A stretch of 64,000 nucleotides of DNA from an uncultured bacterium (GTDB taxonomy: Bacteria > Patescibacteriota > Minisyncoccia > UBA6257 > GWB1-50-10). The stretch's first letter is position 1. Each line of letters opens with the position of its first letter. The translations under genes and the position numbers were made by a program. Of this stretch, positions 19,639 through 62,739 are shown piece after piece. Under the pieces are notes generated by a model. It did not search any database. It was not told where the DNA came from and worked only from the letters and a program-made list of their open reading frames with translations. Where the stretch lies: the NCBI GenBank assembly GCA_963768835.1, contig CAVYJB010000001.1, positions 216,420-280,419 of the forward strand, given 5' to 3'.

Positions 19639-19650
19639 AGCAGTACAGGC

Positions 19651-21369
19651 TTATCGGGAAAGGAACGTGTCGAGGTTCAGCCCTTCTGTTGCTTCGTTGG
19701 AGGTATTCGGCCAGTTGGCACTGTCAAAGCGAGGTGCGGTCAGACGATAGCTCACCTCGTACGGTCCGGCATCGGAAGCGCTGCTGTTCTCTCGGCCGAG
19801 AATCGTGAGTGTCTTCGCAGCTATGTCCTTCTCATACCACACGCGACCGGGGAACGAGGGGGTCACGAGTGCCGTGAGCCCGTCGAAAGCGTTCACAAGG
19901 TTGGTCGCCTTTCCGAAAAGCCAAACGTCCGAACCCTGGGGGAGATTATTAAAATCAAAAACGTACGCGAGGAGACCTGGCGTACCCGTCGGCTGGAGAT
20001 CGACAAGCCCCGCCGTCTCCTCCTTTTGTCCTGTCATACCGGTTCCGTAGGTCGCGTACTGTTTGCCACCAATGGTGTAAACCGGGTCCCAGGTACCCAC
20101 GGTAATTTTCCCCGCCCCTCCATAAGGACCGTTGCCCACGGTGAGTGTGCCCCCAGAGCCGTTTGAAAGACTCATATATCCGCTCGTGCCCGCTTGGAAC
20201 CAGAGGTTTCCACCGACGATCCCGATGCTGTACTTGTTCGAACCATCATCCCAGAGGATAAGCCGGTCGCCCGTGCTGATACTGCCCGCGGCTCCTGGGC
20301 TGTTCACCGTGCCGGGGTTTATGAGCGCAGCGCCCGTGACATTCAGTTTATAATTCCCCGGCGAGGAGTTCCCGATACCGACATTGTAGGTAGTGGAATT
20401 CGGGTAGAGACTGCTTCCGGAGAGGGTCCAGTAGGAACTCCCTGCGCTGCCCCCAGGACCCGTGGGGCCGGTCGAACCGGTTGGGCCCGCAGGACCCTGA
20501 ATACCTGTAGGACCAGCGATACCGGTTGGGCCCGCAGGACCCTGAATACCTGTAGGACCAGCGATACCGGTCGGACCCGCAGGACCCTGGATACCCGTAG
20601 GACCTACGCCACCGTTCGTGCCTGCAGCACCTTGAAGACCCGTGGGGCCGTTGGGACCGGTAGGGCCTACACCACCGTTAGAGCCGTTCGAGCCTGTATT
20701 GCCAGTGGGACCGGTAGGACCCGCACCACCGTTGGAACCTCCGGCGCCTGTAAGACCCGTGGGACCGGTGGGACCGGTGGGACCCCCACCGCCATTGGAG
20801 CCGGCAGAACCCGTGAGCCCCGTCGGGCCTGTGGCACCCGTGGGACCTGCACCACCGTTAGAGCCGTTCGAGCCTGCTGCACCTTGAAGACCTGTCGGGC
20901 CTCCCGGACCTGTTGAACCATTGGTTCCTGCGCTTCCCGTCGGACCTGTCGGGCCTGTTGAACCGTTCGAACCTGCACCTCCCGTGGGACCTGCCGAGCC
21001 AGTAGGTCCGGTCGGACCCTGCCCTTGACCCGTAGGGCCGGTCGCACCCTGAAGACCTGTGGGACCGTTCGAGCCGTTCGCGCCCGCCGAGCCTGAGGGA
21101 CCCGTAGGGCCGGTCGCGCCTGTGGCGCCAGCGTAGGTACTCCACCCTACACCATTACAGATGTACTCATTATTATCTGTGCCGAAATAGACAGCTCCTT
21201 TATTGGATCCGCCGCTGCAGCTGAGAGGCGCCGAAGCCTGAGGCACGAATTTAATGCTTTGAAGCAACTGGGCCTGCGCAAGGTAGGCAACACCGCTTGC
21301 GACAACTGCAAGCGCGAGTCCGATAACGACATGCTCGATCCTAAAATGTTTCCGCATGCGGGGGAACAA
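19651..21369 (-). CDS. collagen-like triple-helix repeat protein, paralog
   Basis: same architecture as 17977..19638; conserved [28 protein letters not shown] block. Confidence 0.8.
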
Positions 21370-25987: not shown

Positions 25988-27028
25988 ATGATGAGACCAA
26001 TGACGACACCTCGTCACATCCTCGTGACCGGCGGCGGCGGATTCCTGGGGTCAGTGCTTGTCCCTCTTCTCCTCGACCACGGGTACCACGTGACTGTCCT
26101 TGACCGTTTCTTCTTCGGGCGTGGCACGCTTGCCGCGTGCTCCTCGAACCCCCGCTGCAAGCTTGTCGAAGCCGACACGCGCACCGCGCCGGAGACCCTC
26201 TTCCAGGGCATCGATTCCGTCGTCGACCTTGCGGCGCTCTCGAACGACCCCTTGAGCGAGCTCAAACCCGAAACGACCCTCGACATCAACTTCCACGCCC
26301 GGGTGCGCACCGCGACGCTCGCGAAAAGGCACGGAGTGGGACGGTACGTGCTTGCCTCGACCTGCAGCGTCTACGGGTTCCAAAACGGCGTTCTCACAGA
26401 GACCGCCGTTTTGAATCCGCTCACGACCTACGCGCGCGCGGCCGCGCGCGCCGAGGAACGCACCCTCGCGCTCTCCGACGGAACCTTTGCGGTGACCGCC
26501 CTGCGGCAGGGAACGCTCTATGGCCTTTCGCCGCGAATGCGCTTCGACATCGTGGTGAATACCCTCACGCTGTCGCTCTTCCGCGACGGGAAACTCCACC
26601 TCAACGGGGGCGACCAGTGGCGTCCCCTCCTCCATGTGGGAGACTCCGCCCGCGCGTTCCTTGCCGTGCTGGAGGCGCCCCCCGCGGCCGTCGGAGGCCA
26701 GGTCTTCAACGTCGGTGCAACAGCCCAGAACTTCCAGCTGAACCACCTCGCCACGCTCATCGTACGCACCCTCGATATCCCGCCAAGGATAGAGACGACG
26801 GAGGCGTACGACCATCGTTCGTACCGAACCTCCTCCGCGAAAATAGAGCGGACCCTCGGCTTCATGACGCAGAAAACGCCGGAGCACGGCGCGCGGGAGG
26901 TGTACGGGGCGCTCCGCACGGGAAGCGTCACTGCAGAAAAAAGCACCATCACGCTTGAGTGGTACAAGCATCTCCTCTCAGGCGACCCGGGGATTCTCGA
27001 TCCCCGCGATATCTCCCACACCGCATAA
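25988..27028 (+). CDS. NAD-dependent epimerase/dehydratase (SDR family)
   Basis: ILVTGGGGFLGSVLV Rossmann motif. Confidence 0.85.
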   Translation: MMRPMTTPRHILVTGGGGFLGSVLVPLLLDHGYHVTVLDRFFFGRGTLAACSSNPRCKLVEADTRTAPETLFQGIDSVVDLAALSNDPLSELKPETTLDINFHARVRTATLAKRHGVGRYVLASTCSVYGFQNGVLTETAVLNPLTTYARAAARAEERTLALSDGTFAVTALRQGTLYGLSPRMRFDIVVNTLTLSLFRDGKLHLNGGDQWRPLLHVGDSARAFLAVLEAPPAAVGGQVFNVGATAQNFQLNHLATLIVRTLDIPPRIETTEAYDHRSYRTSSAKIERTLGFMTQKTPEHGAREVYGALRTGSVTAEKSTITLEWYKHLLSGDPGILDPRDISHTA

Positions 27029-27034
27029 CGGCCT

Positions 27035-45216: not shown

Positions 45217-45478
45217 TGTTTGTATCATACAATTCGGACGCATTTCAAGCAAAATTCCTGACCGATTTACCCCATCACTTACCCCATCATGCGCTACCCC
45301 TCGGAGTGATGGGGTAGCAAGTCGAGATTGATCTGAAAAATATGGGCTTCGGGATGTCGCCGGAGAAAATCCAAAGTCCTACTTCACTCCGCTAGACCCC
45401 CTCCGAGATGGTGTGCTCAGCCCCTCGGCCTGCTGGCCTCGGGACTTCGCGTATGGCGCGCCCAAATTCCTCCCCCAA
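45211..45478. repeat. inverted repeat B, left copy (~268 bp, begins at the inverted CCACCA)
   Basis: reverse complement matches 48199..48465; contains internal palindromes (gctacccc...ggggtagc). Confidence 0.85.
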
Positions 45479-45758: not shown

Positions 45759-47375
45759 ATGGAAGGAAGTGAGGATAACAAGGTTTTTTCCACTAGAACC
45801 ATCGTCATTACGATATTAATTATCGTGGGAGTTGTGTGCCTGGTAGCTTATATTAGCAACTCCTTTAGTAATAATGGAATTAGTACAAATAACAACACCG
45901 CTAACCAAAATTATTATTCGGCGCAAGGAAACTTCTCCGCCTATTTCCCCTCGCAACCAACATACTCGACTGCTTCTCAAGAATTAACCGCTAACAATGA
46001 AGTCGTTGAAGACGATTACTCTTGGGGACAAAGCGATGGATTCTGGAAGTCCCAACTTGAAGCGACTTATGTCGCTTCACCTTTTCCAAATTCAGCGTTG
46101 ACGCCGCAAAAGAATCTTGAAAGCGAGATACAATATACGGGCAACTCGAGCGCGTTTAATCTCATTTCCTCTACCTCTACAACATTAGATGGTTTTCCGG
46201 CCATCGCTTATGCCATTCAATCCAAATCAAATCCAACCGAATACAATATCGGGAAAGATGTGCTTACCAATCATGGTTTGTATATGCTCGGATATTTTTA
46301 TAGCGGCCAAGAAAATAAACAGCTAGAAAATACTTTTCTCAATTCTTTAACCTTTGGGACTCCTATCAACGCGAACGCGCCGCAAGCACCATCATCGCCA
46401 TCGCAACAAAATACGCAACCAACAAACCAGCAATCGCAAAACTCCGCTCCGAGTACCTCTGGTAGCTTGACGACGACATTAATCAATCGGATTGAGCCAT
46501 CCATTGTTGAGATAAATTGCTATTCAGCAAATGACAGCGTAGTAGTGAGTGGATCCGGCACATCCAATCTCAATAACGGAGTTCTTCATATTACAACTAA
46601 TTATCACGTTTATAATGAAGCTAGCGGAGGAGGAACGCCCACTTGCTATGCTGTTTATCCAGAGCCGCCAGATTTTTCGTACAACGCAGAATATGGAGAT
46701 TATCAACTCGTATTAGTTAGCCATGAATATGATACCGATACCTATGAAGATGAAGCAGAATTTACCATCGGCGCACTATATCCCTCAGCAACGCCATTGA
46801 ACCCTCTGCCATCAATTAATAATTTGCCGCTCACGGGAAGTGGCGGGGTAGGTTGTCCCGATGCAACTGTTGGCGATACCGTAACCGTTTTCGGCTATCC
46901 GGCATCGGGCAACTTACTTGGGATTTCAGAAACGGTAACGCAAGGAACGATAGCCGGCATTCTCCCGGGGCCGATTTATAAATTCGATGGCGCAATTGAT
47001 CATGGTAACTCTGGCGGCCTTGCTGTTTTGAATAAAGATAGTTGCGTTTTAGGCATTCCAACCTTAGGGGACTCGGGGCTTACGGCAGGAATCGGTTATA
47101 TTCAATCATTTAGTCTTGCAAGCCAGCCAGTAACGCAAACTAATGCCCAAATATGTCAAAACAATTATGGTGCATATAGTGTATGGAATGGACAAACCAA
47201 CAGTACAGGTGGGCCGACATGCGATTGCGAAAGAGGTTATGAGTGGAACTCGAACCAGACGGCGTGTGTTGCGCTTACGCCAGATCAAATATGCGAACGA
47301 GATATTGGTGCGGGAAGTTATTATCTGGGCTATGATAATCCAAACGGCACCTTGGCGTGTAGTAGCCCTAACTAA
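45759..47375 (+). CDS. membrane-anchored secreted trypsin-like (S1 family) serine protease with Cys-rich C-terminal domain
   Basis: N-terminal TM anchor; TNYHV (His), D, and DHGNSGG (Ser) catalytic triad context; Asn/Ser/Thr-rich linker; 10 Cys in last 90 aa. Confidence 0.7.
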   Translation: MEGSEDNKVFSTRTIVITILIIVGVVCLVAYISNSFSNNGISTNNNTANQNYYSAQGNFSAYFPSQPTYSTASQELTANNEVVEDDYSWGQSDGFWKSQLEATYVASPFPNSALTPQKNLESEIQYTGNSSAFNLISSTSTTLDGFPAIAYAIQSKSNPTEYNIGKDVLTNHGLYMLGYFYSGQENKQLENTFLNSLTFGTPINANAPQAPSSPSQQNTQPTNQQSQNSAPSTSGSLTTTLINRIEPSIVEINCYSANDSVVVSGSGTSNLNNGVLHITTNYHVYNEASGGGTPTCYAVYPEPPDFSYNAEYGDYQLVLVSHEYDTDTYEDEAEFTIGALYPSATPLNPLPSINNLPLTGSGGVGCPDATVGDTVTVFGYPASGNLLGISETVTQGTIAGILPGPIYKFDGAIDHGNSGGLAVLNKDSCVLGIPTLGDSGLTAGIGYIQSFSLASQPVTQTNAQICQNNYGAYSVWNGQTNSTGGPTCDCERGYEWNSNQTACVALTPDQICERDIGAGSYYLGYDNPNGTLACSSPN

Positions 47376-47383
47376 TAAATCAA

Positions 47384-48043
47384 GTGATGGACTATCTATT
47401 ATCTAACCCTAAATACGAAAAGGAGTTATTAGACGAACTGCCGGAAAAACTGAAACCTACTTTTCAAGAGAAGTTGTCGAGGGTGATGACGGGCTATTGG
47501 AAAACTTTGGCCGAGGCAAGGGCCATCGTTATTTTTTTCAAAAAGCTCAAGTTGTTACCTCCCGAATTTCAGGATATTGATATAAAGACATTCAAAGATA
47601 AAGATGTGGATTTTGCCTTTCTTTTTGATAAAGAAAAAATCAACGTCGAGGTTAAAGGATTTAATCCCGACGACGAAGCGTCCGAAGATTATAGTAGCTT
47701 CGCTATCAACACCGGAGACGATGATATTCGTAGGGCGTTAAAAAGAGCAAACAATAAGTTATTAGAAAATTCTTACAACATCGTCATAATCGCAGACGAA
47801 GACACTTTGCATCCGCTTGGTAATAAGAAGCAGGACGAGTTAGATAAAATTTTTGAAGAGGATTTTTATAAAAAGATAAGTGCTTTTATAATTCTCGGCC
47901 CACTTTGGGCAGGCGACCCATTCAAACAATCCGATTTTCTATCCGGTCCTGCGTTCAAATTTACTAGCATCGCCTACAATAAAAATGCACAAAACCCCTT
48001 ACCCTCAAAGTTAAGGGATGCGCTGGATAAAAATAGGGAGTAA
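47384..48043 (+). CDS. hypothetical protein
   Basis: 219-aa Lys/Asp/Glu-rich ORF, AT-rich, same cargo segment. Confidence 0.6.
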   Translation: MMDYLLSNPKYEKELLDELPEKLKPTFQEKLSRVMTGYWKTLAEARAIVIFFKKLKLLPPEFQDIDIKTFKDKDVDFAFLFDKEKINVEVKGFNPDDEASEDYSSFAINTGDDDIRRALKRANNKLLENSYNIVIIADEDTLHPLGNKKQDELDKIFEEDFYKKISAFIILGPLWAGDPFKQSDFLSGPAFKFTSIAYNKNAQNPLPSKLRDALDKNRE

Positions 48044-48198: not shown

Positions 48199-48465
48199 TT
48201 GGGGGAGGAATTTGGGCGCGCCATACGCGAAGTCCCGAGGCCAGCAGGCCGAGGGGCTGAGCACACCATCTCGGAGGGGGTCTAGCGGAGTGAAGTAGGA
48301 CTTTGGATTTTCTCCGGCGACATCCCGAAGCCCATATTTTTCAGATCAATCTCGACTTGCTACCCCATCACTCCGAGGGGTAGCGCATGATGGGGTAAGT
48401 GATGGGGTAAATCGGTCAGGAATTTTGCTTGAAATGCGTCCGAATTGTATGATACAAACACCACC
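48199..48465. repeat. inverted repeat B, right copy (ends CCACC)
   Basis: reverse complement of 45211..45478. Confidence 0.85.
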
Positions 48466-50531: not shown

Positions 50532-52130
50532 TTATTCCCGCGAGCAGGATAGAATGCTTGAGAAGCGCCCGTAGCTCAACTGGATAGAGCATTTGCCTTC
50601 GAAGCAAAGGGTTCCAGGTTCGAGTCCTGGCGGGCGCACAAAGTGAGACGTTTCGCCGTCAAAGTCCCTGTTTAGCGAGAAGACAAGGGATAGTTCGGCG
50701 GTTCCAAATTTCCCGTCCGCAAAAGTTACTTTTTGCGGGAATACTAGGTTTTGGAACCTAACCTTGAGGGGGTACTTAAGCCGCCGCCACGTCTCGGATG
50801 AATTCCGGACGAACTGGAAGCAGTAATCGAGAGCCGCCTCCATGTTGAATTCCTCGATATGGTTTTCTCGCAAAAGGCGATGCTTCTCCGCAATTCGTTC
50901 GTTAATAATCGCTTTTTGTTCCGTAAATTCGTCGTCGGTGTATTTGCCCGCCCGGTGCAAATCAAACACCTTGAGCCGTTCCTGTTCTAGCTCTCCTATC
51001 TCCCGCCGGGTTCGTTCGCTAACCTCATTGAACTGCTTATAGTTCGTTTTCCATACGTCAAGGACCACAGCGCGAAATAGTTTTTCAAACCGCGCGGACG
51101 GGCTAATTTCCGTGAGATACTTGGCGAACTGGTCCTCAAACTCCTTTTGCGCGATGAACTTCGCCTCTGTGCATCCCTGAATATGGTGATGGTAATAGGC
51201 GTAGCGCTTGCCCTTGCGCCCCGTTGAGGTACTTCCTGTAAGCGCTCGCTTACACACGGGACAGTGAACGAAGCGCCGAAGGGGAAAGTCTGGGTTCGCT
51301 ACGTTGCGGACCAAAGGGCGCGCTCCGCCCTCGCGGACCAAGCGGCACTCCTCGAATACTTCTGGCGTCACTAAACTCTCGAACGTCCCATTGTTTCGTT
51401 CTCCAAATGCTTCAATGATGCCGCAATAGAGGGGGTTCTCTAGAACACGCTGAATAAACTGTTTCCTCGGTTTCTTGCCCGTCGTGGTCCGCAAACCGCG
51501 CTCAGCCATATACTCTGCTAACGATTCGTAACTGTGGGTTCCCTCGCGCCATTCGTCAAATATAAGCCGGTAAAGGTGCTTTGTTGCTTCAATGGGGGCG
51601 ATATTCGAGCCCTTTGCACCCCTTAGGGGCCGATAATAACCAGGTGGTTCTCTCCACTGCCAAATGCCCTTTCTAACATTTTCTAACATCCCGCTTTTAG
51701 AGCGCTCGGTACGCACGTTGTTATCGAACTCTGCAAAAACGGATAACATCCCCTCCATCGCCGCGCCTACTGGCGTGCTATCTATTGGTTCAGTTGTTGA
51801 GCAAAGCTCGGTGCCGTGTTTGTTGAGAATCGCACGGACCGTCGCGTGGTCATACTGCTTACGCGAGAAGCGGTCAATTTTGTAGACGATGAAATAATCT
51901 ACAGGGTGCCTTTTGTCCGAGCAAAACGCAATCGCTTTAAGGAATTCCGGTCTATTGGCGGTCTTCGCGGATTCTCCCCGATCCACAAACACCTTGAGTA
52001 ACTCGATACCGTTCCGGGCGGTGTACTCCCGAATGTTTTTCTCCTGCATTTCCAAGCTAGTGCCCTCCACTTGCTCTTTCGAGGAGACGCGGCAATACCC
52101 AATCCCAGTTTTCTTCTCTATGACGCTCAT
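50532..52130 (-). CDS. large serine recombinase (integrase); 3' end reads antisense through tRNA-Arg
   Basis: GYCRVSSKEQ catalytic Ser region, recombinase domain, zinc ribbon HCPVCKRALTG, coiled-coil; 532 aa. Confidence 0.85.
   Translation of the reverse strand: MSVIEKKTGIGYCRVSSKEQVEGTSLEMQEKNIREYTARNGIELLKVFVDRGESAKTANRPEFLKAIAFCSDKRHPVDYFIVYKIDRFSRKQYDHATVRAILNKHGTELCSTTEPIDSTPVGAAMEGMLSVFAEFDNNVRTERSKSGMLENVRKGIWQWREPPGYYRPLRGAKGSNIAPIEATKHLYRLIFDEWREGTHSYESLAEYMAERGLRTTTGKKPRKQFIQRVLENPLYCGIIEAFGERNNGTFESLVTPEVFEECRLVREGGARPLVRNVANPDFPLRRFVHCPVCKRALTGSTSTGRKGKRYAYYHHHIQGCTEAKFIAQKEFEDQFAKYLTEISPSARFEKLFRAVVLDVWKTNYKQFNEVSERTRREIGELEQERLKVFDLHRAGKYTDDEFTEQKAIINERIAEKHRLLRENHIEEFNMEAALDYCFQFVRNSSETWRRLKYPLKVRFQNLVFPQKVTFADGKFGTAELSLVFSLNRDFDGETSHFVRPPGLEPGTLCFEGKCSIQLSYGRFSSILSCSRE
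50565..50638 (+). tRNA. tRNA-Arg (anticodon TCG), no encoded CCA
   Basis: manual fold: acceptor GCGCCCG/CGGGCGC, D-arm GCTC-AACTGGATA-GAGC, anticodon arm TTTGC-CTTCGAA-GCAAA, T-arm CCAGG-TTCGAGT-CCTGG. Confidence 0.85.
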
Positions 52131-52414
52131 GGTGTAATTTTACCCTCGTCCTCTACACGATGTAAGCCCCAAGCGGGACTTTTGGAACCGCCCCCTATCC
52201 CTAAATATCCACCATTTTCCACCCAGTCATCGAACATAACACCCGCAAGCCCGTACAGTGCCCCCAATACGCGTTCCAATTCGTCGTCTGGGACGCTTTC
52301 TAGGCTTGGGTCTACCTTTCTAGCTTGGTCAACAGATAACATGGATTTCATAGGCACCCGCCAATCTACCAAAATCAACCATTTCCTACCGTTTACTACC
52401 GATAAAATCGGATG

Positions 52415-52855
52415 CTACATAACCTGCTCATCGGCCCATGTATGAGCCCTTTCACGCATATCTGTGATATTTTTTGCAACAAACATGAGAAACGCCGGAT
52501 TCTTAAAATAGCCGTTTAAGCCACCGACAATGACGACCTGTTTCTGTATCTCCTTGCACTCCCCGTAGGAGGCGGAAAACTCTTCATCTTGCTTTCTATA
52601 GCTCTCTAGGGTGTCAGCTGATACATTTATCGTCCGGGCAAAATCCCTAAAGAATGGAATCGCTTTCCGCTCGCTTAAATGATCGAGGCAATCCTCGAAA
52701 TAGCGGATCATTTCCTGTCCGAGCTCAGGCAAAGACTCTTTGGGGTAGGCGCGCGGCCTCCCTCCATTATTTCCAACTGCATATGTGTTTCCTTTTGGTG
52801 CTGGCATAAAAGAAAAACCCTCAAGAGAGGGCACAAAAACGCTTGCTTTGTGCAA
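52415..52855 (-). CDS. small-terminase-like DNA-binding protein (KGNxxAxGNxGGRP motif)
   Basis: probable start MPAPKGNTYAVGNNGGRPR at 52807; C-terminal FVAKN...W.DEQ resembles TerS tails. Confidence 0.5.
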   Translation of the reverse strand: MHKASVFVPSLEGFSFMPAPKGNTYAVGNNGGRPRAYPKESLPELGQEMIRYFEDCLDHLSERKAIPFFRDFARTINVSADTLESYRKQDEEFSASYGECKEIQKQVVIVGGLNGYFKNPAFLMFVAKNITDMRERAHTWADEQVM

Positions 52856-53244
52856 TCTCTTGAGGGTTTGCCACCGACAGCCTCTGCCGCTTACAAAAGT
52901 AAAGTTTTGTAAGGGCTAGGGAGGGCTCCCAACAGGCCAACTGCGGCTTTCGCCGCCGAGCTTGGGTTCATTTCCCTATGTTTTTCGTGTACCTCCTGTA
53001 ATGGTCAAGGCATTACACCTTCCATTAATGATTCTAGGTACCTTATCGCGCCCAACGTAATAGGTTTGGGAATTACGTTAAACTTGTCTCCGAAATGAGC
53101 TATCCAATCCTAGTACAAGTATAGCACGATTATTTGCGAAAATCAAATCGAGCTCGCCAAAAAATCGAGATTCCCTTAATTCTCTTATAAATTATATTAA
53201 AATATACCAATACTTCCGAATCTATGATTTCCCGGGTGTAAGTA

Positions 53245-55950
53245 TTAGAAAGCCCCATCAAATACCTTCTCGAATGCTGTTTCCTCATCGCGGTTGTAAA
53301 ACGGCAACCCTAAAACCCGATATTGATCCGTGTCTAATAGCGTCTTAACTAGACCTGCCACTTGAAGGTCTTTCAGAAAATTCTCTTTTGGCTTGTCCTC
53401 GGCCGACAAAAATTCACCTTTAGGCTCGATAAAAATCTGCCAAACACGATTTGCGCTCCGCTTACCGACTTTAGCTTTGCGTTGCACAAGACATAGAAGA
53501 TAGTCGGGCTGAAACGCTAGTCCTTCCTTAAAGGTGTAAAGCGTAATAACCCTCTCGTTTCGAATGAGATAAATCTCGCTGTAGCGCTTTTTTAATTTTT
53601 CAATGCGTCCATCGACAAATTTCACTAACCATTTTTCCTGATCTGTCCCAAAATCATCCTCATACACGTACCAATCACGCACATCAAGATTTAACCGCAG
53701 TGCTTGGTCTGTCGGCGGCACACGCACGCCATTCTTAGCCTCATATTCCCTACCGGACATAGAGCGTCCTCGCTCTTGTACTCCGGTCGGCATAGTCACC
53801 TGTATCTTTTTGTCGTTAATGAGCGTCGCTAGTTGTTGGGGTTTGAATTCCCTACTTCCGCGATATGTTGCTGTATGGGCAAGAATAGCGGTCTGTACTT
53901 CTCCTAAAATATGGACCAGTTGAATGAATACCTCGGAAGTCATCACCAAATCCCCGCCTTGCGGAATATGTATATCCACACGGATACGTCCGAGATATTT
54001 CGAGCCAGCAATAAATTCTTTGATGGAGGTGAGTTTGGGAAAATAGCGCCGGAGGTTGTCATAGTGGAAGAATGGCAACTTATCCATTGCTTTCCGTACA
54101 GCGTGCGCTGAGAGGTCGCCAAGCACCATACTAGTCGTCTTGTATTCGGGGTCCCTACCTCTGCCGTTCGTTTCGAATGCCGCTGTATCTCCGGAAAATC
54201 CCGATGCAACATGAATTTCAAGCGGCCTTCCTACCGCATCCGAAAATTTAGCAACCCCTATCCCAGTAGTTTCCTCCCGCGAATTCACAAAGACTCTTGC
54301 CCGACGGTAGAAGGGGGATTTTCGAAAATTACCCTTAAGCCGCAGGGGTAGTTCAACCGATTCATCAATCGCAAATCCTGTTTGTTTTAGAGCCTCTTTA
54401 AGTTCGCCAATATATCGGTGGTCCTCTTTGCTATGAAAATGCATCTGCTCCAGGGCCCGAAGCGGATTGCCTAAATCATTGTCGAACTTCCGTCGATCTA
54501 ACGGCTGACTGTCGTTCAATCGAAATGGCCAATATCGCGCTCCGCGCCCAATCAATTGAGCCTCGCGAATCGTGGCACGAATCCTACCCCTCTCGTCGTA
54601 AAGACGCACAATATCAAAGAGATTCAATACATCCCATCCCTCATTCAGAACCTCGACATCGAAAACTGCGCGAATTGGGTTGGTGGCATCTTCCAAATTT
54701 ACTAAGGTATTCAATAGTTTCGGATTGCGCCCAGTAATGGTGCCGTTAATAACCACACAGCGCTCGTGAGAAAACTCTGCCCTTAATATTCTCGCTAGCT
54801 GTGAATCAGAAATGTTGCTTTCTTCGTAAAACGTCAGGGCATCAAGCAGAATCCTGCTTTCAGATCGCCTCATCGCGATTTTCTTGAGCGCGGCAATATC
54901 TTTTGCTTCCAGGACATCAACCAATGCCCGGAATCGCTCGTAGTCATACTGTTGGGCATTAATGCGGTTAGATTTCAATAAAACCACGGGCTTAAGGGCT
55001 TTTTTGCGGCTTTCAGCAAGCTGTCGGCGGTATTCGGATATAACAAGTGCCTGGAGAATCCGCCCCTCAAGGCTTGCTTCTGAACGATGCAAAAACACAT
55101 CTTTTGAGTATCCGTCATTACGGAACTGTGGAAGGTCGTACTCAATAAGCACTCGTTCCGCATATTTCCGCGCGATGTTCTGATCGTTCCATCCAATGGT
55201 TGCTGTGAATTCTAGAAGCACGTTGTCCCGATGACTTTCAACAAGTTGTCGGATGGTCCATTCCCAAGAGGCCTCTAGCTCTCGTTCTTCCTGTTCACCG
55301 GCCCGAGTCAATGCATTAACGTGATGGGCCTCGTCAGAAATGAAAACCGTTTTCTCTCTTTTGAAGTCGTCCAAGGTAACGCTGTTTTCTTGAGAGTTGC
55401 GAATTCGGCTATGTAACCCGGCTAGCGTAGTGAAGATGATATTGATTGCATCAGGACTTCCAGATTCAAAGTTTTCTACCTCTCGAATCACAACCTCGTT
55501 CCCATGAATCACTACCGGGTCACGAAAAAGATATTTTGCGGATGATTTCTGTAAAAAATTATCCCTTGTTTTTAAGACAATGTTTGTCTTATCAACGAAA
55601 AATACAAAGTTACGGTAACCACGAGAATACAGATACAAAATCGCGCCCGCCATCACAACGGTCTTTCCACTGCCGGTCGCCATACTAAAGAGGAGTTCAG
55701 TGGGGCGTTTACGGTGGTCGTCCTTCTCAAGGTGGAAAACAAACCGAGAAAGAGCGGTTAGTTGGTACGGACGGAGGATGATCCCTGGCCGAAGATTTTC
55801 GGTAATGAGCCTCGGTATGGGGGTGACGCTACGCTCCTCAAGAACCTCATACCGCTGCGCTAGTCGTAGCGTGCTAGTGGTTGGCATAAAACGCTCGTGA
55901 ATGTTCTTTATCCTTTGCTGACACCTTGAATGTTGCGTCCTCCATGTCAC
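53245..55950 (-). CDS. res: Type III restriction endonuclease Res subunit (SF2 helicase-nuclease)
   Basis: helicase motif I ATGSGKT, DEAH box FISDEAHH, 901 aa, overlaps mod 3' end. Confidence 0.9.
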   Translation of the reverse strand: MTWRTQHSRCQQRIKNIHERFMPTTSTLRLAQRYEVLEERSVTPIPRLITENLRPGIILRPYQLTALSRFVFHLEKDDHRKRPTELLFSMATGSGKTVVMAGAILYLYSRGYRNFVFFVDKTNIVLKTRDNFLQKSSAKYLFRDPVVIHGNEVVIREVENFESGSPDAINIIFTTLAGLHSRIRNSQENSVTLDDFKREKTVFISDEAHHVNALTRAGEQEERELEASWEWTIRQLVESHRDNVLLEFTATIGWNDQNIARKYAERVLIEYDLPQFRNDGYSKDVFLHRSEASLEGRILQALVISEYRRQLAESRKKALKPVVLLKSNRINAQQYDYERFRALVDVLEAKDIAALKKIAMRRSESRILLDALTFYEESNISDSQLARILRAEFSHERCVVINGTITGRNPKLLNTLVNLEDATNPIRAVFDVEVLNEGWDVLNLFDIVRLYDERGRIRATIREAQLIGRGARYWPFRLNDSQPLDRRKFDNDLGNPLRALEQMHFHSKEDHRYIGELKEALKQTGFAIDESVELPLRLKGNFRKSPFYRRARVFVNSREETTGIGVAKFSDAVGRPLEIHVASGFSGDTAAFETNGRGRDPEYKTTSMVLGDLSAHAVRKAMDKLPFFHYDNLRRYFPKLTSIKEFIAGSKYLGRIRVDIHIPQGGDLVMTSEVFIQLVHILGEVQTAILAHTATYRGSREFKPQQLATLINDKKIQVTMPTGVQERGRSMSGREYEAKNGVRVPPTDQALRLNLDVRDWYVYEDDFGTDQEKWLVKFVDGRIEKLKKRYSEIYLIRNERVITLYTFKEGLAFQPDYLLCLVQRKAKVGKRSANRVWQIFIEPKGEFLSAEDKPKENFLKDLQVAGLVKTLLDTDQYRVLGLPFYNRDEETAFEKVFDGAF

Positions 55951-57673
55951 TGTAGTTCAGATATAGGTGGTTCATATCCAAACAATCAAGTAAGGCCTTT
56001 TTTTGGTGCAGGATGTCCAGCTTTTCAAACTTCTCTCTGCCGAACTTTTCCGGTCGCACAGGATAGCGGAAAAACGCTTCCTTCTGCATCTTTTTCCAAA
56101 TACTAAGTAAATCTTTTGTTGTTTTAGCATGTTCAATTTGTGTAACGTACCCAGCATTGAGTTGGTATAGTTCCATGTAAACAAAGCTACCACCTCCCCC
56201 CCAACCAACCTCCTGAGAAATTCCCGTCTGATCGCCCTTGATAATTTTTCTCAGTCTAGCGGTCGAATCGTTCTTGCTGTAATTGAGTTGCTCTATCCCG
56301 ATATAGCGACGTTTCATTTTGTGAGCTACCGCACAAGTCGTGCCACTGCCCAAATGATAATCCATCACTAAGTCGCCTTCGTTTGAGGCCATCTCTACAA
56401 TCCTTTTCAATAACTTTTCCGGCTTCTGAGTTAGAAATTCTTTGATTAGTTCAGTGTGATCTCTTTGGCTTTCTATGTAGGCTCGAGGATCTGCATAAAC
56501 TTGCCGAATATCAGTCCAAACAGTGGAAAGAGGGGTGCCCTTACTTTCATCAAGATACTGCTTAACCCAAATAGTCTTACCGTTTTTGTCGCGCCCGCGC
56601 ATTCTTTTTTGGTAACGCCTTCCATCCTCATCTACGTTTTTGAACCAGTCTTTTAGATACTTTTCTGAATACTCAATGTAGACCTTGTTTTGTTTTCGTT
56701 GAGTATAGTCTTTTGCATAATGCAGAATGTAATTGTGGATACCTACCGGCTTCGCTGTCGCGGCACGCCCACCGGAAGGTGAACCGTAGGACGAAACTAT
56801 CTCTTCAACAAAATTGTCTCTCCCAAAAACCTCATCGCACAGGACCTTGAGATAATGTGCTTCGTTGTCATCTATGTGAATAAAAATGTTTCCATCGCTC
56901 GATAAAAGATCACGAGCCACGCTTAGCCTATTCTTCATAAAAACCAACCAAGTAGAATGACTAAACTTGTCGTTGTACTTAAACTCATCCGAAGTGGTAT
57001 TAAAGGGTGGGTCTATGTATATCAGATTCACTTTTCCCCAGAAACGAGGCAAGAGCGAATATAGGGCCAAAAGATTATTGCCTCGAATGAGCAGGCTGTC
57101 ATTGGGACGAACGGTGTCAAGTGGCCACTTTCCTTTTTTATCAAAGCGCGTCCAGTTCGTGAGCACCTTCGGTTCGCGAAGTCGATCTACTTCGTCTGGC
57201 GCTAGTGTCGTGTTGTAAAAAATTTCCTCGCGCTTCTCGTCCGTTCTTTCCTGACCGCCCTCTAACACACAATCTTTATAGGGGAATGCTAGAACGACGT
57301 CGCGCGATTGCTTCAGTAAATCCCGGTCCGTCGTAGAAAGTCCAATATCGTTCCGAAATGCTGTGTACGAGCCGGGAAGAAAATCTGTCATTGCCACGAA
57401 GTCAATAAGTTTTTCTCGGAGCAGAACGGCTCCTACGCCAGGAACGGTTACAAAAAAATGTGCCCGTAAGACGGGCGCCGAGAATAACAACTTTACTAAT
57501 ATCGGATCAGCTCCGGCGGACAACTGTTCTAACTCCGTAATAAGCAACTGCGGCTTTTCGTCGTGGGACCACGATCGCTTATCTCTCCGCAGGACCGCAT
57601 CAAGAATAGCGCTTAGCTTCCCCCGTCCGCGACGACCACCGTCCTTCTTTTCCTCGTGTTTTTTGGTGGCCAT
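55874..57673 (-). CDS. mod: Type III DNA methyltransferase Mod subunit (N6-adenine)
   Basis: LIYIDPPF motif IV, SAM motif, 599 aa; 77-nt overlap with res typical of Type III systems. Confidence 0.9.
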   Translation of the reverse strand: MATKKHEEKKDGGRRGRGKLSAILDAVLRRDKRSWSHDEKPQLLITELEQLSAGADPILVKLLFSAPVLRAHFFVTVPGVGAVLLREKLIDFVAMTDFLPGSYTAFRNDIGLSTTDRDLLKQSRDVVLAFPYKDCVLEGGQERTDEKREEIFYNTTLAPDEVDRLREPKVLTNWTRFDKKGKWPLDTVRPNDSLLIRGNNLLALYSLLPRFWGKVNLIYIDPPFNTTSDEFKYNDKFSHSTWLVFMKNRLSVARDLLSSDGNIFIHIDDNEAHYLKVLCDEVFGRDNFVEEIVSSYGSPSGGRAATAKPVGIHNYILHYAKDYTQRKQNKVYIEYSEKYLKDWFKNVDEDGRRYQKRMRGRDKNGKTIWVKQYLDESKGTPLSTVWTDIRQVYADPRAYIESQRDHTELIKEFLTQKPEKLLKRIVEMASNEGDLVMDYHLGSGTTCAVAHKMKRRYIGIEQLNYSKNDSTARLRKIIKGDQTGISQEVGWGGGGSFVYMELYQLNAGYVTQIEHAKTTKDLLSIWKKMQKEAFFRYPVRPEKFGREKFEKLDILHQKKALLDCLDMNHLYLNYSDMEDATFKVSAKDKEHSRAFYANH

Positions 57674-57700
57674 GACTTATAAATCTTTAGCTCTTCATTG

Positions 57701-58141
57701 TTATTCTCTCAAGCTCTGCGGCCATATTATTTTCTGTACAATCCGGCGGGCAGGAATTACCCCCTCAATTCCGTGCTTCTTCGCAATTTCTAACGGGAGA
57801 TGGATAAGGATAGGAACAGGAAGTTGACGATCTGCTTCTGGGACCACAGCCTTATTCACGTAGTACCCGACCCGGTCAAGTATGTCCCGGCAGGCATTCA
57901 GTCTCACGCTCTCGCTCCGTGCCTTCTGCGAGAGGTGAAATACCATCGAGGCGACATCTCCCGCTCGTTCCTCCAAATACGCCCGAATGTTAGGTTTTGT
58001 TAGGTTCTCACTCCCCACAGAACGCGCTGTAGCCCTGTTCTGAGGCTTGTAGGCGCGGCTAGCGGCTTCTGTAGCGTTTCCCGTTTCAAGATAGGCGCTC
58101 GCAAATTTTCGCTGTTTTTTAGAGAGCCCCTCCATTTTCAA
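57701..58141 (-). CDS. terS: phage terminase small subunit (P27/Terminase_2 family)
   Basis: LSKKQRKFASAYLETGNATEAASRAY N-terminal signature. Confidence 0.8.
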   Translation of the reverse strand: MKMEGLSKKQRKFASAYLETGNATEAASRAYKPQNRATARSVGSENLTKPNIRAYLEERAGDVASMVFHLSQKARSESVRLNACRDILDRVGYYVNKAVVPEADRQLPVPILIHLPLEIAKKHGIEGVIPARRIVQKIIWPQSLRE

Positions 58142-58149
58142 GTTGTATT

Positions 58150-59261
58150 CTATTTGTCTTCAGCCCATTCAAACCTATCCTTGAGTCGGGCATATCTACT
58201 AAAAGGAATTTTTCCGAAGTGCTCAAGTCTGCCGATAACAATGCCCGTATCAATTTTTTCCTTCTCGGAGAATTTCTTTATGCATTCCATCGTATAGCAG
58301 TTGCCTTCTAGAAACTCATGAAAGTCTTTGCTTGGAATTAAGACCTCAGAAGCAAACTCGTTTGCCTTTAGCTCCTTCTCGCTTTTCTCATTAAGCCCAT
58401 TCTCAAAATCGATATTGAGCTCTCTTTTCCCATGAAGTAGGAGATGCCCTATCTCATGGAACAAACTTGAACCAAAATATATCGCATGACCGGTAGAGTA
58501 TACTCATTTGTATCATGGCTTTTTCTGGAGAAAGCCCACCTAGACACTCCATTGATGGGGGTGTTTTTTAGGCTCGGGGTTACAGTAAAGGCAACGCCAC
58601 ACTTCGATAAGATATTTTGGATCCCGTCTTGTATGGCCTTTGGTTTTTCAAGAATCAAGGCGCGGATTTGTGGTACGGCATCTCGAAGTTTTTCTGCATC
58701 GAATTTCTCTGTTGGAGCGCCCTGACAATCAACAATCCCTTTTCTCAGCCAAGCGGCCACAGATTGGGGAGATACCTTTCTTTTTTCAGACTTCCTGTAG
58801 AGTAAGGTGAGATCTCCCATTAACTCTCTCTTTACAACATCTTTTAAAGAAACGGCGCCGAAAAAGGAGCGAAGATTACCCACCATTTCAATCGAATCTC
58901 TTGTGGCAGGCACCCAATTCAGTTTCTCCATTTCAATATATGGGTAGGACGTTGAGATTTTTATCTCCTTACTCATAGCTTCTTGATCCCGAATTCTAGC
59001 TTTCACGTCCTGATAGTTAGATTCCAAGTTGTTCCAGACACCCGCGGGAATGCTCAAGACCTGTTCGAGTTGAATTACCGTCTCTGCAGTGATTGCTGTC
59101 TTGCCCTTTATAATTTCGTTTACCACTTGTAATGGCCGTTGCATTCTGCGGGCGAGATCGGCCTGGGTCATATTTCTTTCCTGAAGTGCCTCAAGTAAGG
59201 TTTCTCCCGGCGCTATCGGCAGTATTGGATAGTATGAAGTGAATTTTTTGAGCATGGTCAC
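58150..59261 (-). pseudogene. XRE-HTH / ImmA-IrrE metallopeptidase fusion (HigA-like antitoxin), frameshifted
   Basis: 58449..59261 carries HTH (MTQADLARRMQRPLQ) and peptidase N-part; 58150..58464 starts FHEIGHLLLH (HExxH); 16-nt overlap in different frames. Confidence 0.7.
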
Positions 59262-59605
59262 TTTTCCTTGTGGTAATTAATTTTTATCTCTGCGACTGAC
59301 AATGAGTCTATTTTATTCCAATCAACCCCCCCGTTCTCTTGAGTGTAAGTTCCAGGGTCGTTTTCAATATTAAAGATGATTCTGTCCGGCTCTACCAAAT
59401 GGACCCCAATTTGATGTTTCCTGTCATATTTTAACTCGTGCCACTTTCCTGGTGCATGCCGTAAATCAGCAAGGGTATTTGCGGAACGCGCTTGATCAAG
59501 TCGAAGAAAAATTTTCTTTGCCATAGGAACACCAAACGCTGCCTTGCATGTTCGGAGCGAAGTTAATTGGTGTCTGAGTTTCTGGGAAATAAAAACTTGC
59601 ATCAT
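59258..59605 (-). CDS. HigB-like (RelE/ParE superfamily) toxin
   Basis: PGKWHELKYDRKHQIGVHLVEPDRIIFNI matches the HigB killer-protein pattern; ATGA overlap with downstream antitoxin. Confidence 0.7.
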   Translation of the reverse strand: MMQVFISQKLRHQLTSLRTCKAAFGVPMAKKIFLRLDQARSANTLADLRHAPGKWHELKYDRKHQIGVHLVEPDRIIFNIENDPGTYTQENGGVDWNKIDSLSVAEIKINYHKEK

Positions 59606-60031
59606 TACTCAATTGGTGACTGATAGGTGGCCTAAGAATCGCTTTCTTAGCTTTGTCGGGTGAAAAGGCAATCATACTCATTATTATAGCATTCACCCTT
59701 TAGGTGAATACAATTGAAGCATATACGGCTCCGCTTTGCAAGAGCATACCTATACTGGTCGCTTCAAATCCCACTAGGCACTAATAGCCCCTGCCAGACC
59801 GACCTTTTTGGCTTCTCTTGCAAATAGCGCCCAATTATTCAACTCTAGTAGTATTGGGTTCCAACTTCGCATCACTTGGGGCACATGGTAGTGAGACCGA
59901 CCGAGGTGCGTCAATGCTGACGATTTCCGAGTCCGTCAAGGCGCACCCCGGAAGGACTCGAACCGAACCAAACGCTTTTTATCGGAAGGGTCGATAGGGG
60001 GTTCAGGTCTTGTTACCCGGATTTGAGCCCT

Positions 60032-61076
60032 TTATGTCCAGAACCAAATCTCGTTCTTGAGCCGCTCGCGGAGCGCATGGCCGTTCGCGTGCGAGAGCAC
60101 GCCAAGATACGACTGGAGCGATTGTTCGAGGCTTTGCATGCCGATGTCACCACGATGGTATTCCCGAATCCTTTCTCGGAACTTCTTGAATATCCGCCTC
60201 CTCGTTTTCGTGCGGACGAGACGGTGGTTCGGGAATACGTTGTATCCCAAGAAGTCCACCCCTTGATGCAGGGCGCGAATAGCAACCTTTTGCGGATGAA
60301 GCTCCAGCGAGAGCCGTTCCTTCAGAAAACGCGCAATCGGTGGTAGCATATCTTCCAGGTAGCCCTTGGTAGGAGAGACCACGACGAAATCGTCGGTATA
60401 TCGGAAGTAGTCCTTCACCCGCAGCTCGTGCTTCATAAAATGATCGAATTCGTGCATATATACGTTGGCGAAAAGCTGGGAGGTCAGATTGCCTATCGGC
60501 AATCCCTTGTGACTCTCTCTCTCTCGAGAGAGAGAGAGAGTAGCTCCCGACGATAGACTGGAGGAGCCACAGCGCGTTCTCGTCTGCTATCCTCCGTGCC
60601 AGGAGCGAGAGGAGGATTGCGTGATCCACGCTGTCGAAGAACTTCCGAATGTCACACTTGAGGACGAAGCACGGGCACGTGCCGTTCCTCCCGAGAGCCC
60701 GCGCACGTTCTTCAAGCCTCGCAACCCCCTTGTGGGTGCCGTAGCCCACGCGGCAGGAAAAGGAGGTCGGGATGAACGTTTCCTCGAAGATCGGGTTCAG
60801 GACCGCAACCACGGCGTGGTGCAGCACCCGGTCCCGCACCGTCGCTTTGTGGATGTGCCGCTGCTTCGGGTCGCGGATGTAGAAGCTTTGGTACGGGCCG
60901 TGCTGGTAGGTTTGGTTTTTCAGCTCGCGGTGGAGGCCGAAGATGTGCTCCTCAAGATGCCGCTCGAACCGCATGACATCGGGCTTATTCCGTTTTCCCC
61001 TCTTGAAGGAATCCCATGCTGAAAAGAGATTCTCCGGCGCGATGAGCCGGTCGAACAGGCCTCTATACACTTTCAT
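60032..61076 (-). pseudogene. DGR-type reverse transcriptase interrupted by a 28-nt palindromic insertion
   Basis: N-ORF 60147..61076 has RT motifs 1-3 (FVLKCDIRKFFDSVDH); C-ORF 60032..60502 has motif 4 LPIGNLTSQLFANVY (DGR-specific IGxxxSQ) and YTDDFVV; removing 60513..60540 restores frame. Confidence 0.85.
60513..60540. repeat. 28-nt (CT)6C/(GA)7G perfect palindrome inside the RT gene
   Basis: ctctctctctctc gagagagagagagag; exactly the length needed to explain the frame break. Confidence 0.9.
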
Positions 61077-61090
61077 GCTCTTATAAAGCC

Positions 61091-61441
61091 ATGGACGATT
61101 TCGACATCCCGATCTTCAAGAGAACCTACGACCTCTACAAAACCTTCTACGGGTACCGTGACGGCATCCAGAAGCAGGACCGCCACACCATCTGGCAGAA
61201 GTGCGAGAACATCATCCTCGAGATTCTCGAAGGGATACTCCTCGCGAGCCAGGCGTATAAATCCGAGAAGCTGCCGATCCTCGAGAGGGTCAGCGTGAAG
61301 CTGAATGTGCTGCGCGTCTTTCTCCGGCTGATGAAGGACGTCAAGATAATCGATAACAAGAAATACACGACCTTGGAGGGACTGGTGGACGAGATCGGAC
61401 GCATGCTCGGCGGGTGGATCAAGTCCTCGAGAGACCGATAA
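61091..61441 (+). CDS. avd: Avd-like accessory variability determinant (four-helix-bundle, 23S IVS protein family)
   Basis: 116 aa, IPIFKRTYDLYKTFYGY N-terminus typical of Avd/IVS proteins; located between RT and TR; divergent from RT with a 14-nt gap. Confidence 0.65.
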   Translation: MDDFDIPIFKRTYDLYKTFYGYRDGIQKQDRHTIWQKCENIILEILEGILLASQAYKSEKLPILERVSVKLNVLRVFLRLMKDVKIIDNKKYTTLEGLVDEIGRMLGGWIKSSRDR

Positions 61442-61487
61442 AAGAATGCCCCGCGTGGCGGGGCATTCAGCAATGGATGGAGGGGTG

Positions 61488-61607
61488 ACTGCCGGGCGGA
61501 GGCAAGACCGATGTTGTCGTTGCGGTTGTCGTCCCAGTTGTTGTTGACGTTCAAGCCGTCGGAATCGAAGTTGCCGACGTTGACCCGGTTGCCGTCCGAA
61601 TCCACAT
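61488..61607 (-). repeat. DGR template repeat (TR)
   Basis: 120 bp; differs from VR at 15 positions, all T on + strand (A on coding strand); coding-strand translation rich in AAC (Asn). Confidence 0.9.
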
Positions 61608-61962
61608 ATTGCCCGCTTCCGTCCGTGGCACCGGAGGTCGAGGGTTGCCGCTCAAAAGGAGCTTATATCCTCTCCCCCCTGAATTTCATTCGGGAGTAGC
61701 CCCTCCTGGGGCACCTCCACTAGAAGCGAGCAAGAAGTCCATCTCCATCCTTCGCCGCACGCTGCCGCAATCCGTGGACGGCGGCATTCTGGCGACATCT
61801 CAAAGGAGAGATATCTTGCGAGGCAAAGCCGTGACCGCGCCTGCATGAGCAAGATATGAAGAGTATAGCAAGCGGGCGTATGAAAAGAAATGAGCCTCCG
61901 GCGAAAATATCGCGCGGAGGCTCAAGGAATCAAGAGGGTCAAGCCCTCAAAGCTTCGAGGTT

Positions 61963-62739
61963 CTACCCGGACTTCCGGGCGGAGGCAAGACCGATGCTGT
62001 CGCCGCGGCCGCCGTCCCAGCCGCCGCTGACGTTCAAGCCGTCGGAACCGAAGCTGCCGACGATGACCCGGTAGCCGTCCGAATCCACATCCGAGGAGCG
62101 GACGTAGATCTTCTCGAAGAGCCGTTCGCCCGTCGCGAGGAAGTGGCCGATGATGGTGTAGACCATCACGCGTGCCGTGGGCACCTCCTCGTTCTTGCCG
62201 AGGAGCAGTTGCTGCTCGTCCCATGTCTTGCTCGTCGAGTTCTCGACCGGAGTCTTCCGCACAAGCTTCCATCCCATCTCTCCGCGATCCTTGGCGAAGG
62301 CCTGCTTGTTGTACCAATCCTGGCCATAGAACAGGCGCTGGCCGCTCGGGATTTTTCCGCCACGGATTTCGAGGATAGAGAGCGGGAAGACAACGACGAG
62401 AACGTGAGTGTCCTTGCAGCTCTCCAGCACGCCTTCCGTGAACGGGATCTCCGCGAGGGCGGCGAGTTGCTGCTTCGAGGGATTGAACCCGAAGTGCCCG
62501 ATCGCCTCCGCGACGCCGAAGAAGTTCTTGCCCATGATCTCGCAGGCACGCTTCTGACTCGTCGTCGGTTCGAAGCCACCGTTCTGGATCAGTCTCACCA
62601 CCTTCGTAGCGAGATCGTTCTCCTTCGAGATGATGACTTTCTGGGCGAGCTCGTCGGTGAGACCTGCGGCCTCGAGCTTCAGGAGCACTTCGTGTTCCTT
62701 ATGCACCGACAGGGTGCGGCTCATGATGGGTTCCATCAC
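61963..62739 (-). CDS. DGR target protein with C-terminal variable region (CLec-like ...GGWDGGRGDSIGLASA tail)
   Basis: 258 aa; AGGAGG RBS; VR encodes last ~40 aa. Confidence 0.8.
   Translation of the reverse strand: MMEPIMSRTLSVHKEHEVLLKLEAAGLTDELAQKVIISKENDLATKVVRLIQNGGFEPTTSQKRACEIMGKNFFGVAEAIGHFGFNPSKQQLAALAEIPFTEGVLESCKDTHVLVVVFPLSILEIRGGKIPSGQRLFYGQDWYNKQAFAKDRGEMGWKLVRKTPVENSTSKTWDEQQLLLGKNEEVPTARVMVYTIIGHFLATGERLFEKIYVRSSDVDSDGYRVIVGSFGSDGLNVSGGWDGGRGDSIGLASARKSG
61971..62090 (-). repeat. DGR variable repeat (VR) at the 3' end of the target gene
   Basis: 13 T-to-C and 2 T-to-A substitutions relative to TR (A-to-G/T on coding strand); palindrome cccggacttccggg at 61966..61979 at the VR end. 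Confidence 0.9.

Follow-up and report, generated by a model that had tools for sequence, protein, structure and literature searches.

Simple sequence repeat (SSR) contingency loci include the CT dinucleotide repeats in the Helicobacter pylori outer-membrane genes oipA, sabA and hopZ, as well as the tetra- and pentanucleotide repeats in the mod genes of Haemophilus and Neisseria. General background on phase-variable SSR loci is given in PMC5084427 and PMC4081817. The present analysis concerns a 28-nucleotide (nt) dinucleotide-repeat tract that divides the reverse transcriptase (RT) gene of a diversity-generating retroelement (DGR) in DNA from an uncultured bacterium of the Patescibacteria, or Candidate Phyla Radiation (CPR). 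The stretch analysed, called the window below, comprises 64,000 nt (contig CAVYJB010000001.1, positions 216,420 to 280,419). On balance we think it probable that the tract is this genome's out-of-frame version of a hypermutable SSR found in the RT loop of CPR DGRs, most likely a reversible on/off switch of the RT and of DGR mutagenesis.

The likeness to SSR contingency loci lies in a pure, short tandem repeat within an open reading frame (ORF), with a unit that is not a multiple of 3, in a unit number that varies between near-identical genomes, and in the occurrence of both ON and OFF alleles in genes that are otherwise intact. Unlike those loci, the gated gene here is a retroelement RT and not a surface or restriction-modification protein, the tract lies mid-gene in a surface loop, and its carriers are uncultured CPR bacteria, where the known loci belong to host-adapted pathogens. 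Further differences are that the tract occupies one site across many classes, that some of its alleles are palindromic, and that switching is proposed from sequence comparisons.

The retroelement itself resembles the DGR of Bordetella phage BPP-1 (bRT-Avd, 8ub7) in having an RT with an IGxxxSQ motif 4, an adjacent Avd, and adenine-specific differences between the template repeat (TR) and the variable repeat (VR). CPR DGR architecture with an inverted avd is classed as type B3 (PMC5758913), and the window cassette is standard for that type. It differs from the BPP-1 DGR at the tract position, where bRT has no residues; nor was the tract found in viral DGR RTs (2.9 million contigs). Another likeness is to the RT3a insertion of group II intron and non-long-terminal-repeat RTs (GsI-IIC RT, PDB 6ar1), which holds the same position between motifs 3 and 4 and likewise consists of extra residues that some RT families have and others lack. 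RT3a is a conserved structured segment, whereas the segment here is a low-complexity, length-variable loop encoded by a microsatellite.

A further point of comparison is offered by mobile elements that use programmed ribosomal frameshifting (IS3-family transposases, retroviral gag-pol, the -2 shift of arteriviruses) and by transcriptional slippage that rescues frameshifts. Common to these systems and the present family are a slippery repeat, which in some loci has a stable hairpin a few nt beyond it, and the division of a mobile or retro-element enzyme between two frames. Unlike them, the family shows frame relations of 0, +1 and -1, has no X XXY YYZ heptamer, and has a hairpin that is not universal. 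Structure-stimulated slippage is described in PMC5737552.

A repeat tract divides the RT gene of the window

The window RT contains the motifs PIGNLTSQ and YTDD and matches RVT_1 (E = 2.7e-21); its best solved relative is the Bordetella phage bRT (PDB 8ub7, E = 9.6e-47). RT motif 3 is on one side of the tract and motif 4 (IGxxxSQ) on the other; the gene is laid out as follows:

60540..61076, minus strand: RT N-terminal half, M1 to Y179, with motifs 1 to 3; the tract begins with the third base of the Tyr179 codon
60513..60540, minus strand: dinucleotide-repeat tract in the RT loop, 28 nt; on the coding strand (CT)7C from 60540 down to 60526, then (GA)6G from 60525 down to 60513
60486..60505, minus strand: second hairpin, GGAUUGCC-GAUA-GGCAAUCU, 8 bp, in the motif-4 codons (G-L-P-I-G-N-L), on the mRNA 7 nt 3' of the tract
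60032..60511, minus strand: RT C-terminal half, an open frame of 159 codons running from HKGLPIGNLTSQ through YTDD to the natural stop at 60032, with motif 4 (IGxxxSQ) and the catalytic YxDD

On the plus strand, positions 60513-60540 read CTCTCTCTCTCTC GAGAGAGAGAGAGAG. At 28 nt the tract puts the C-terminal half out of frame, whereas lengths of 30 or 24 nt would keep it in frame. The N-terminal ORF as it stands (60147-61076, minus strand) runs on past the tract in the wrong frame to a length of 309 amino acids (aa), and the gene cannot yield a full-length RT by ordinary translation.

An earlier note on this DNA had described the 28 nt as a perfect palindrome and taken them for a discrete insertion that may have inactivated the DGR, or else for an amplification or assembly artefact. 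Re-reading the sequence and locating both halves of the gene bears out that the 28 nt are present and break the RT frame between motifs 3 and 4, and their exact deletion does link ...LLQSIVGSY to HKGLPIGNLTSQ in frame. One point about the palindrome has to be adjusted: with 13 nt of CT and 15 nt of GA, the 28-mer as a whole does not equal its reverse complement, and perfect symmetry is confined to the 26 nt at 60513-60538, which have CTCGAG at their centre. An alternative reading gives two 14-nt arms (60512-60525 and 60528-60541), 100% complementary and separated by a 2-nt spacer. The palindrome is single-copy in the 64 kb, with 0 matches expected from 100 dinucleotide-preserving shuffles, and the only other dinucleotide runs of at least 5 units in the window are (TC)5 at 22245 and (CG)5 at 26431.

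The tract region is predicted to fold as a strong hairpin; over 76 nt including the second hairpin, the energy is -35.1 kcal/mol for RNA (z -3.5) and -20 kcal/mol for DNA (z -4.5). Motif-4 codons are prone to hairpins throughout the family, partly since the I-P-I-G-N codons are inherently self-complementary. No known RNA family was matched within 59600-61700 at E <= 1.

Deletion of the 28 nt gives a 338-aa protein, below nearly all homologues (341-356 aa). Addition of 2 nt, that is, a 30-nt tract with one more unit in either arm, gives a 348-aa RT with the loop SLSLSRERES, and the modal length among homologues is 349. The AlphaFold model of this +2-nt allele has a mean predicted local distance difference test score (pLDDT) of 89.7 and a predicted template modelling score (pTM) of 0.84; its sole weak block, residues 181-190 (pLDDT 58), matches the tract-encoded loop at 180-189.

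The same site carries (GA)n tracts in many CPR DGRs

The window RT was aligned with its best 120 homologues, DGR RTs of Patescibacteria that are 60-66% identical to it. All 120 have a variable-length loop precisely at the tract site, most commonly of 11 residues (e.g. SSSxSTLFERK), and 10 of them contain in-frame RERE runs within it. The DNA of RERE-bearing homologues consists of pure GA repeats, not of mixed Arg and Glu codons: (GA)17 in L002 and (GA)15 in L003 and L004 (L numbers denote individual loci). The phage bRT (8ub7) shows a 10-residue alignment gap exactly at this position, where group II intron RTs have RT3a.

A scan for (GA)5 followed after 0-30 nt by codons for P-I-G-N-L-T matched at least 120 stretches in metagenome contigs. 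In species-representative genomes it gave 114 matches, almost all in Patescibacteria/CPR, and the lineages among these 114 genomes include Wolfe-, Berkel-, Uhr-, Doudna-, Harrison-, Andersen- and Peregrinibacteria, Paceibacterota and others. The same pattern gave 0 matches in the 2.9 million viral contigs, though viral DGR RTs have the same motif 4. Among the CPR matches, 203 unique scorable RT loci have a pure (GA)5-35 tract in the same loop, and five of the 203 have the (CT)n(GA)n form at this site, with the following coding-strand tracts:

L032: (CT)9(GA)10
L075: (CT)10(GA)15
L112: (CT)8(GA)13
L078: (CT)5(GA)5..., in frame
L163: (CT)8(GA)14

Only 2 other dinucleotide repeats of at least 6 units occur in the 1.26 Mb of DNA flanking the loops. 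These data show the tract to be genuine, confined to one site, polymorphic in length and conserved over deep divergence. The collection of loci required a tract in the search pattern, so that prevalence among all CPR DGRs can be estimated only roughly; the 10 in-frame cases among 120 homologues, taken with an in-frame rate of about 23% (below), suggest that the tract is present in roughly a quarter to a third of them.

These comparisons displace the idea of a discrete insertion or footprint, since the homologues already have a loop at the site, removal of the 28 nt leaves an atypically short RT, and more than 200 other RT genes have pure (GA)n at the same place, five with (CT)n(GA)n. They also make it very improbable that the tract is an inverted-junction chimera of amplification or assembly, or a foreign micro-insertion left by a mobile element. 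A near-perfect palindrome with a CTCGAG core is what such an event might leave, and a single lineage-specific allele has been seen, in two assemblies that may both come from the same reads. However, an independent k-mer assembly, the Logan per-run assembly of ERR11594402, contains a contig of 1718 nt that is 100% identical to window positions 59881-61598 including the palindrome. The flanks are collinear RT coding sequence with no inverted copies beyond the palindrome arms, no target-site duplication was found at the tract borders (TA before and TCA after the tract), and (CT)n(GA)n recurs at the same codon position in five unrelated datasets. A second copy was found neither in the window nor, for the 22-nt core, in the 2.9 million viral contigs; absence of the core from the latter indicates that the palindrome is not a recurrent junction artefact.

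The loop could instead be a non-adaptive hotspot. On this account a sequence-tolerant loop lets a GA proto-repeat, such as the GAGAGA of a ..FERK.. loop, expand by slippage; out-of-frame alleles are freshly dead DGRs, and the palindrome arises by template-switch inversion of the GA tract. Such an origin would suit a loop that varies in length, is a gap in bRT and is modelled as a low-confidence coil, and ..FERK.. stands at the site in many homologues, where it could seed GAGAGA. Yet pure tracts persist at one site in many CPR classes and only 2 other such repeats occur in the surrounding 1.26 Mb, while the lack of a tract in viral DGRs with the same motif 4 argues against a generic property of the loop. 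Together with the state of the out-of-frame genes described below, this leads us to consider a mere hotspot unlikely.

Two side observations concern sequences next to the tract. One RT subclade (L025, L061, L115, L164, L173, L193, L199, L204, L206, L230, L235) has TGTGGATAA just upstream of the GA tract; this is the reverse complement of the DnaA-box consensus TTATCCACA and could simply encode V-D-N. In L057 (596-772) a scaffold joins, via 'NN', two RT motif-4 regions with different GA tracts and flanks, as if two variants had been scaffolded together at the repeat.

Tract length differs between near-identical loci

Evidence of length change comes from pairs of loci. Two pairs with 100% identical 600-nt flanks differ by a single unit that decides the frame: L042 with (GA)10 is in frame and L162 with (GA)9 is out, and L200 with (GA)13 is in frame and L184 with (GA)14 is out. 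Further frame-switching pairs are L122 with (GA)9 in frame and L019 with (GA)7 out, and L040 with (GA)5 in frame and L059 with (GA)6 out. Between L075 and L112, which have the same flanks, both the CT and the GA arm differ in length. At 70-90% flank identity the frame class is common to 30-34% of pairs, which equals the random expectation; no lineage therefore holds a preferred offset. Three features that mark an SSR contingency locus are found here: a perfect in-ORF repeat with a unit that is not a multiple of 3, a unit number that changes the frame (at the level of the family), and ON and OFF alleles in intact genes.

For the window RT itself, other alleles were sought by exact look-ups of Avd and the C-terminal ORF, which gave only the same Logan contig, and exact look-ups of the target protein and of the cysteinyl-tRNA synthetase (CysRS) returned no record. 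A protein search found nothing closer to the window RT than 66% identity.

Reading frame and condition of the genes around the tract

Loop length modulo 3 is 0, 1 and 2 in 46, 80 and 77 of the 203 unique loci. The in-frame share is 22.7% (95% confidence interval 17-29%; p = 0.0006 against 1/3), with agreement between the two collections (25/108 and 23/109) and between short and long tracts. The out-of-frame state of the window is thus the common state.

Out-of-frame genes are as well preserved as in-frame ones. In the C-terminal half, an open frame of at least 130 codons is found in 137/140 out-of-frame and 41/42 in-frame genes, and in the N-terminal half one of at least 165 codons is found in 127/137 and 40/41, respectively. 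YxDD is present in 150/150 and 43/43, and an A-biased TR/VR pair lies within the fetched stretch in 67/105 and 19/32. Judged by their reading frames, most out-of-frame genes have the tract as their sole lesion. This bears heavily on the hotspot explanation: decay should bring more lesions, yet both halves are open in 93-98% of out-of-frame genes and all retain YxDD, and TR/VR pairs are as frequent beside out-of-frame as beside in-frame genes. That in-frame alleles are not enriched is, for its part, what a hotspot would predict.

Just past the tract, the C-terminal frame avoids the stop that 'G TAA A' would form (2/47 GTA-type loci), so that the C frame is kept open right up to the tract; translation must then be able to pass through the tract into the C-terminal half. 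A functional product in the alternative frame was considered and rejected, since N-frame read-through after the tract ends at a median of 11-20 codons, like the control frame, and no alternative product is therefore selected. The window itself is unusual in this respect: its N-terminal frame stays open for 130 codons beyond the tract (60147-60512, minus strand), compared with the median of 11-20 and never 100 in 156 other out-of-frame loci, which may reflect higher G+C or something more.

An open C-terminal frame is equally what would be expected if recoding took place during expression. The ribosome (by +/-2-nt slips) or RNA polymerase would slip on the repeat and so produce full-length RT from out-of-frame alleles, with the DNA phase tuning the amount. 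After a 2-nt slip on (GA)n, both GAG and AGA regain perfect pairing, and ERER is read in each of the three frames. Recoding would also suit the predominance of out-of-frame yet intact loci, the lack of enrichment for in-frame alleles, and the stable hairpins just 3' of the tract in 29 of 140 loci and 7 nt downstream in the window. Known programmed frameshifts hold one direction, though, and here the +1 and -1 classes are equally common (80 and 77) and random among relatives. The downstream hairpin is not universal, and the motif-4 hairpin is partly imposed by the amino-acid motif. Efficient slippage on GA dinucleotide repeats is not known to us from any bacterium. Recoding accordingly strikes us as improbable; were it the true mechanism, the dinucleotide repeat would represent a recoding signal of a new class.

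More specific forms of recoding or removal were rejected individually. A programmed frameshift with one conserved frame relation does not fit the 46/80/77 distribution, and a lineage-specific direction is ruled out by the random frame class among relatives. Intron-like excision was examined for the tract only, for the tract with fixed flanks and for the maximal perfect stem; no single rule restores the frame (pre- plus post-length modulo 3 in 33, 32 and 43 loci), and hand checks on L053, L077, L007 and L006 were mutually inconsistent. Translational bypass of the T4 gene 60 or mitochondrial byp type would take off at UAC, and neither UAC nor UAU occurs at the 3' border (GAG UCA CAA). A stem enclosing the tract gave a mean duplex energy between pre- and post-flank of -9.50, against -9.08 for permuted partners, a weak and non-universal difference of about 2.5 standard deviations. 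As to a universal downstream hairpin, the 30-nt signal obtained with a dinucleotide-shuffle control is mostly attributable to the motif-4 codons; for the post-tract region by itself, p is 0.35 over the 140 loci, of which the 29 mentioned are individually significant.

In L080, L159, L226, L121, L089, L050, L018 and others, the GA tract is immediately followed by a perfect GC-rich hairpin with a stem of 5-10 bp and a 3-nt loop (TTC, TGC, GAA); the stems differ between loci.

A candidate repeat switch on the RT

The explanation that we favour, a repeat switch on the RT, would work as follows. The tract occupies what appears to be a variable surface loop separating motif 3 from motif 4, at the site known as RT3a in group II intron RTs. 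Its core element would be pure (GA)n on the coding strand, preceded in the window and in at least five others by the inverted complement (CT)n, which creates the palindrome; the CT arm is most simply seen as an inverted copy of the GA tract, and both arms probably slip. Slipped-strand mispairing would gain or lose 2-nt units, each step shifting the frame and so alternating between full-length and truncated RT. Because (GA)n and (CT)n are free of stops in all frames, in-frame alleles merely encode a loop of the form ...RERE... or ...SLSL-RERE.... The 28-nt tract of the window would hold the RT in the OFF state, and gain of one unit in either arm would give the full RT.

A selected ON/OFF switch is supported by the conservation of one site over deep divergence, by the near-absence of such repeats elsewhere and by the intactness of OFF genes. 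From these we infer that switching is reversible in vivo and that the repeat serves as a contingency locus, under which DGR mutagenesis is off most of the time and on in occasional phases. A mostly OFF system would account for the deficit of in-frame alleles, part of which could also reflect ON populations that assemble poorly around diversified VRs.

Several points weigh against a repeat switch. In-frame alleles fall below chance, which needs either selection for OFF or the loss of ON loci as diversified VRs fragment assemblies. The RT lineage of the window has been seen only in the OFF state, its only other copy being identical, and some of the identical-flank pairs come from related co-assemblies, so that assembly noise may contribute to those differences. 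The tract lies mid-gene, whereas many phase-variable tracts are near the 5' end. Finally, the strong GC hairpins just after the tract in 29 of 140 loci, and the window hairpin 7 nt downstream, have the geometry of a ribosomal frameshift site and would be superfluous for a plain repeat switch.

Whether the switch extends to a CPR-wide conserved contingency locus gating DGR mutagenesis, in which (GA)n, sometimes (CT)n(GA)n, is OFF in most cells and stochastically ON in a minority, is in our judgement evenly balanced. If so, a hypermutable switch would govern a hypermutator, and DGR activity could be predicted straight from metagenomes by the phase of the tract. Some three in four tract-bearing DGRs would then be 'switched off' rather than dead, and would be missed by DGR finders that demand an intact RT. 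Because gene callers split the RT into two pseudogene-like ORFs, some 77% of tract-bearing CPR DGRs are likely under-counted or annotated as decayed. For DGRs it is an unsettled matter how cells keep a mutagenic retroelement in check; regulators are few in CPR bacteria, and a built-in stochastic switch on the RT would be a simple answer. Tract length in metagenomic reads can be set against VR diversity, which makes a test from sequence data possible. A full-text literature search, with the main CPR DGR survey (Paul et al. 2017) outside its reach, found no description of a repeat tract or of phase variation in a DGR RT; repeat-based control of this enzyme is probably, though not certainly, new.

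The DGR cassette and its neighbourhood

The remaining parts of the cassette lie upstream of the RT gene:

61091..61441, plus strand: avd accessory gene, 116 aa (PF22296 bAvd, E = 5e-20)
61487..61607, minus strand: TR, AAC-rich, forming a repeat pair with the VR
61963..62739, minus strand: DGR target gene, 258 aa, with the VR at its C-terminus and no Pfam match
61970..62090, minus strand: VR at the 3' end of the target gene, forming a repeat pair with the TR

TR and VR differ at 16 positions in 121 nt, and 15 of the 16 mismatches fall at TR adenines; the VR thus carries the signature of earlier DGR activity. Three components that identify a DGR are in place, namely an RT with the DGR motif 4 and YxDD, an adenine-biased TR/VR pair, and Avd. 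With Avd, TR, VR and both RT halves sound, the cassette is intact except for the RT frame, which makes doubtful the earlier note's suggestion of an inactivated and decaying DGR. The avd gene is divergent from the RT gene, with start codons 14 nt apart (61076-61091), and only 3 nt apart in L003 (860-864); given this proximity, both promoters must sit within the opposite coding sequence. The nearest named proteins to the window CysRS belong to Jorgensenbacteria, Harrisonbacteria and Patescibacteria.

Downstream of the RT, at about 59940-59972 on the minus strand, lies a fragment resembling the 3' half of a tRNA (GGTTCGAGTCCTTCCGGGGTGCGCC), with a 12-nt T-arm core that it shares with tRNA-Arg and tRNA-Lys. 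The Logan contig terminates at 59881, near this fragment, which may be an attachment-site remnant or an island boundary. Island-like content (50532-59700) adjoins the DGR. There, a tRNA-Arg (50565-50639) is overlapped by a large serine recombinase ORF (50532-52130, minus strand), and Pfam identifies the res subunit of a type III restriction enzyme at 53245-55950. By eye only, 55874-57673 is methyltransferase-like; after it come a terminase-small-like ORF and several XRE/ImmA-like ORFs, with those at 58150-58464 and 58449-59261 overlapping as though split.

Elsewhere in the window, the Rfam search matched a 96-nt tRNA at 2042-2137 (minus strand) that is absent from the ARAGORN list and possibly contains an intron, and ARAGORN reported a 90-nt tRNA-Leu at 26943-27032 (minus strand) that is absent from the Rfam list. 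A 12-nt unit, TTACCCCATCAC, is tandemly duplicated at one of the two sites 45267-45289 and 48388-48410, and its reverse complement is tandemly duplicated at the other, 3.1 kb apart; these duplications flank the ORFs 45759-47375 and 47384-48043 and may be the ends of an invertible or mobile segment. Dense tandem repeats with periods of 9, 45, 54, 63 and 90 fill 18750-21120, within the minus-strand ORFs 17977-19638 and 19651-21369, and resemble collagen-like Gly-X-Y repeats.

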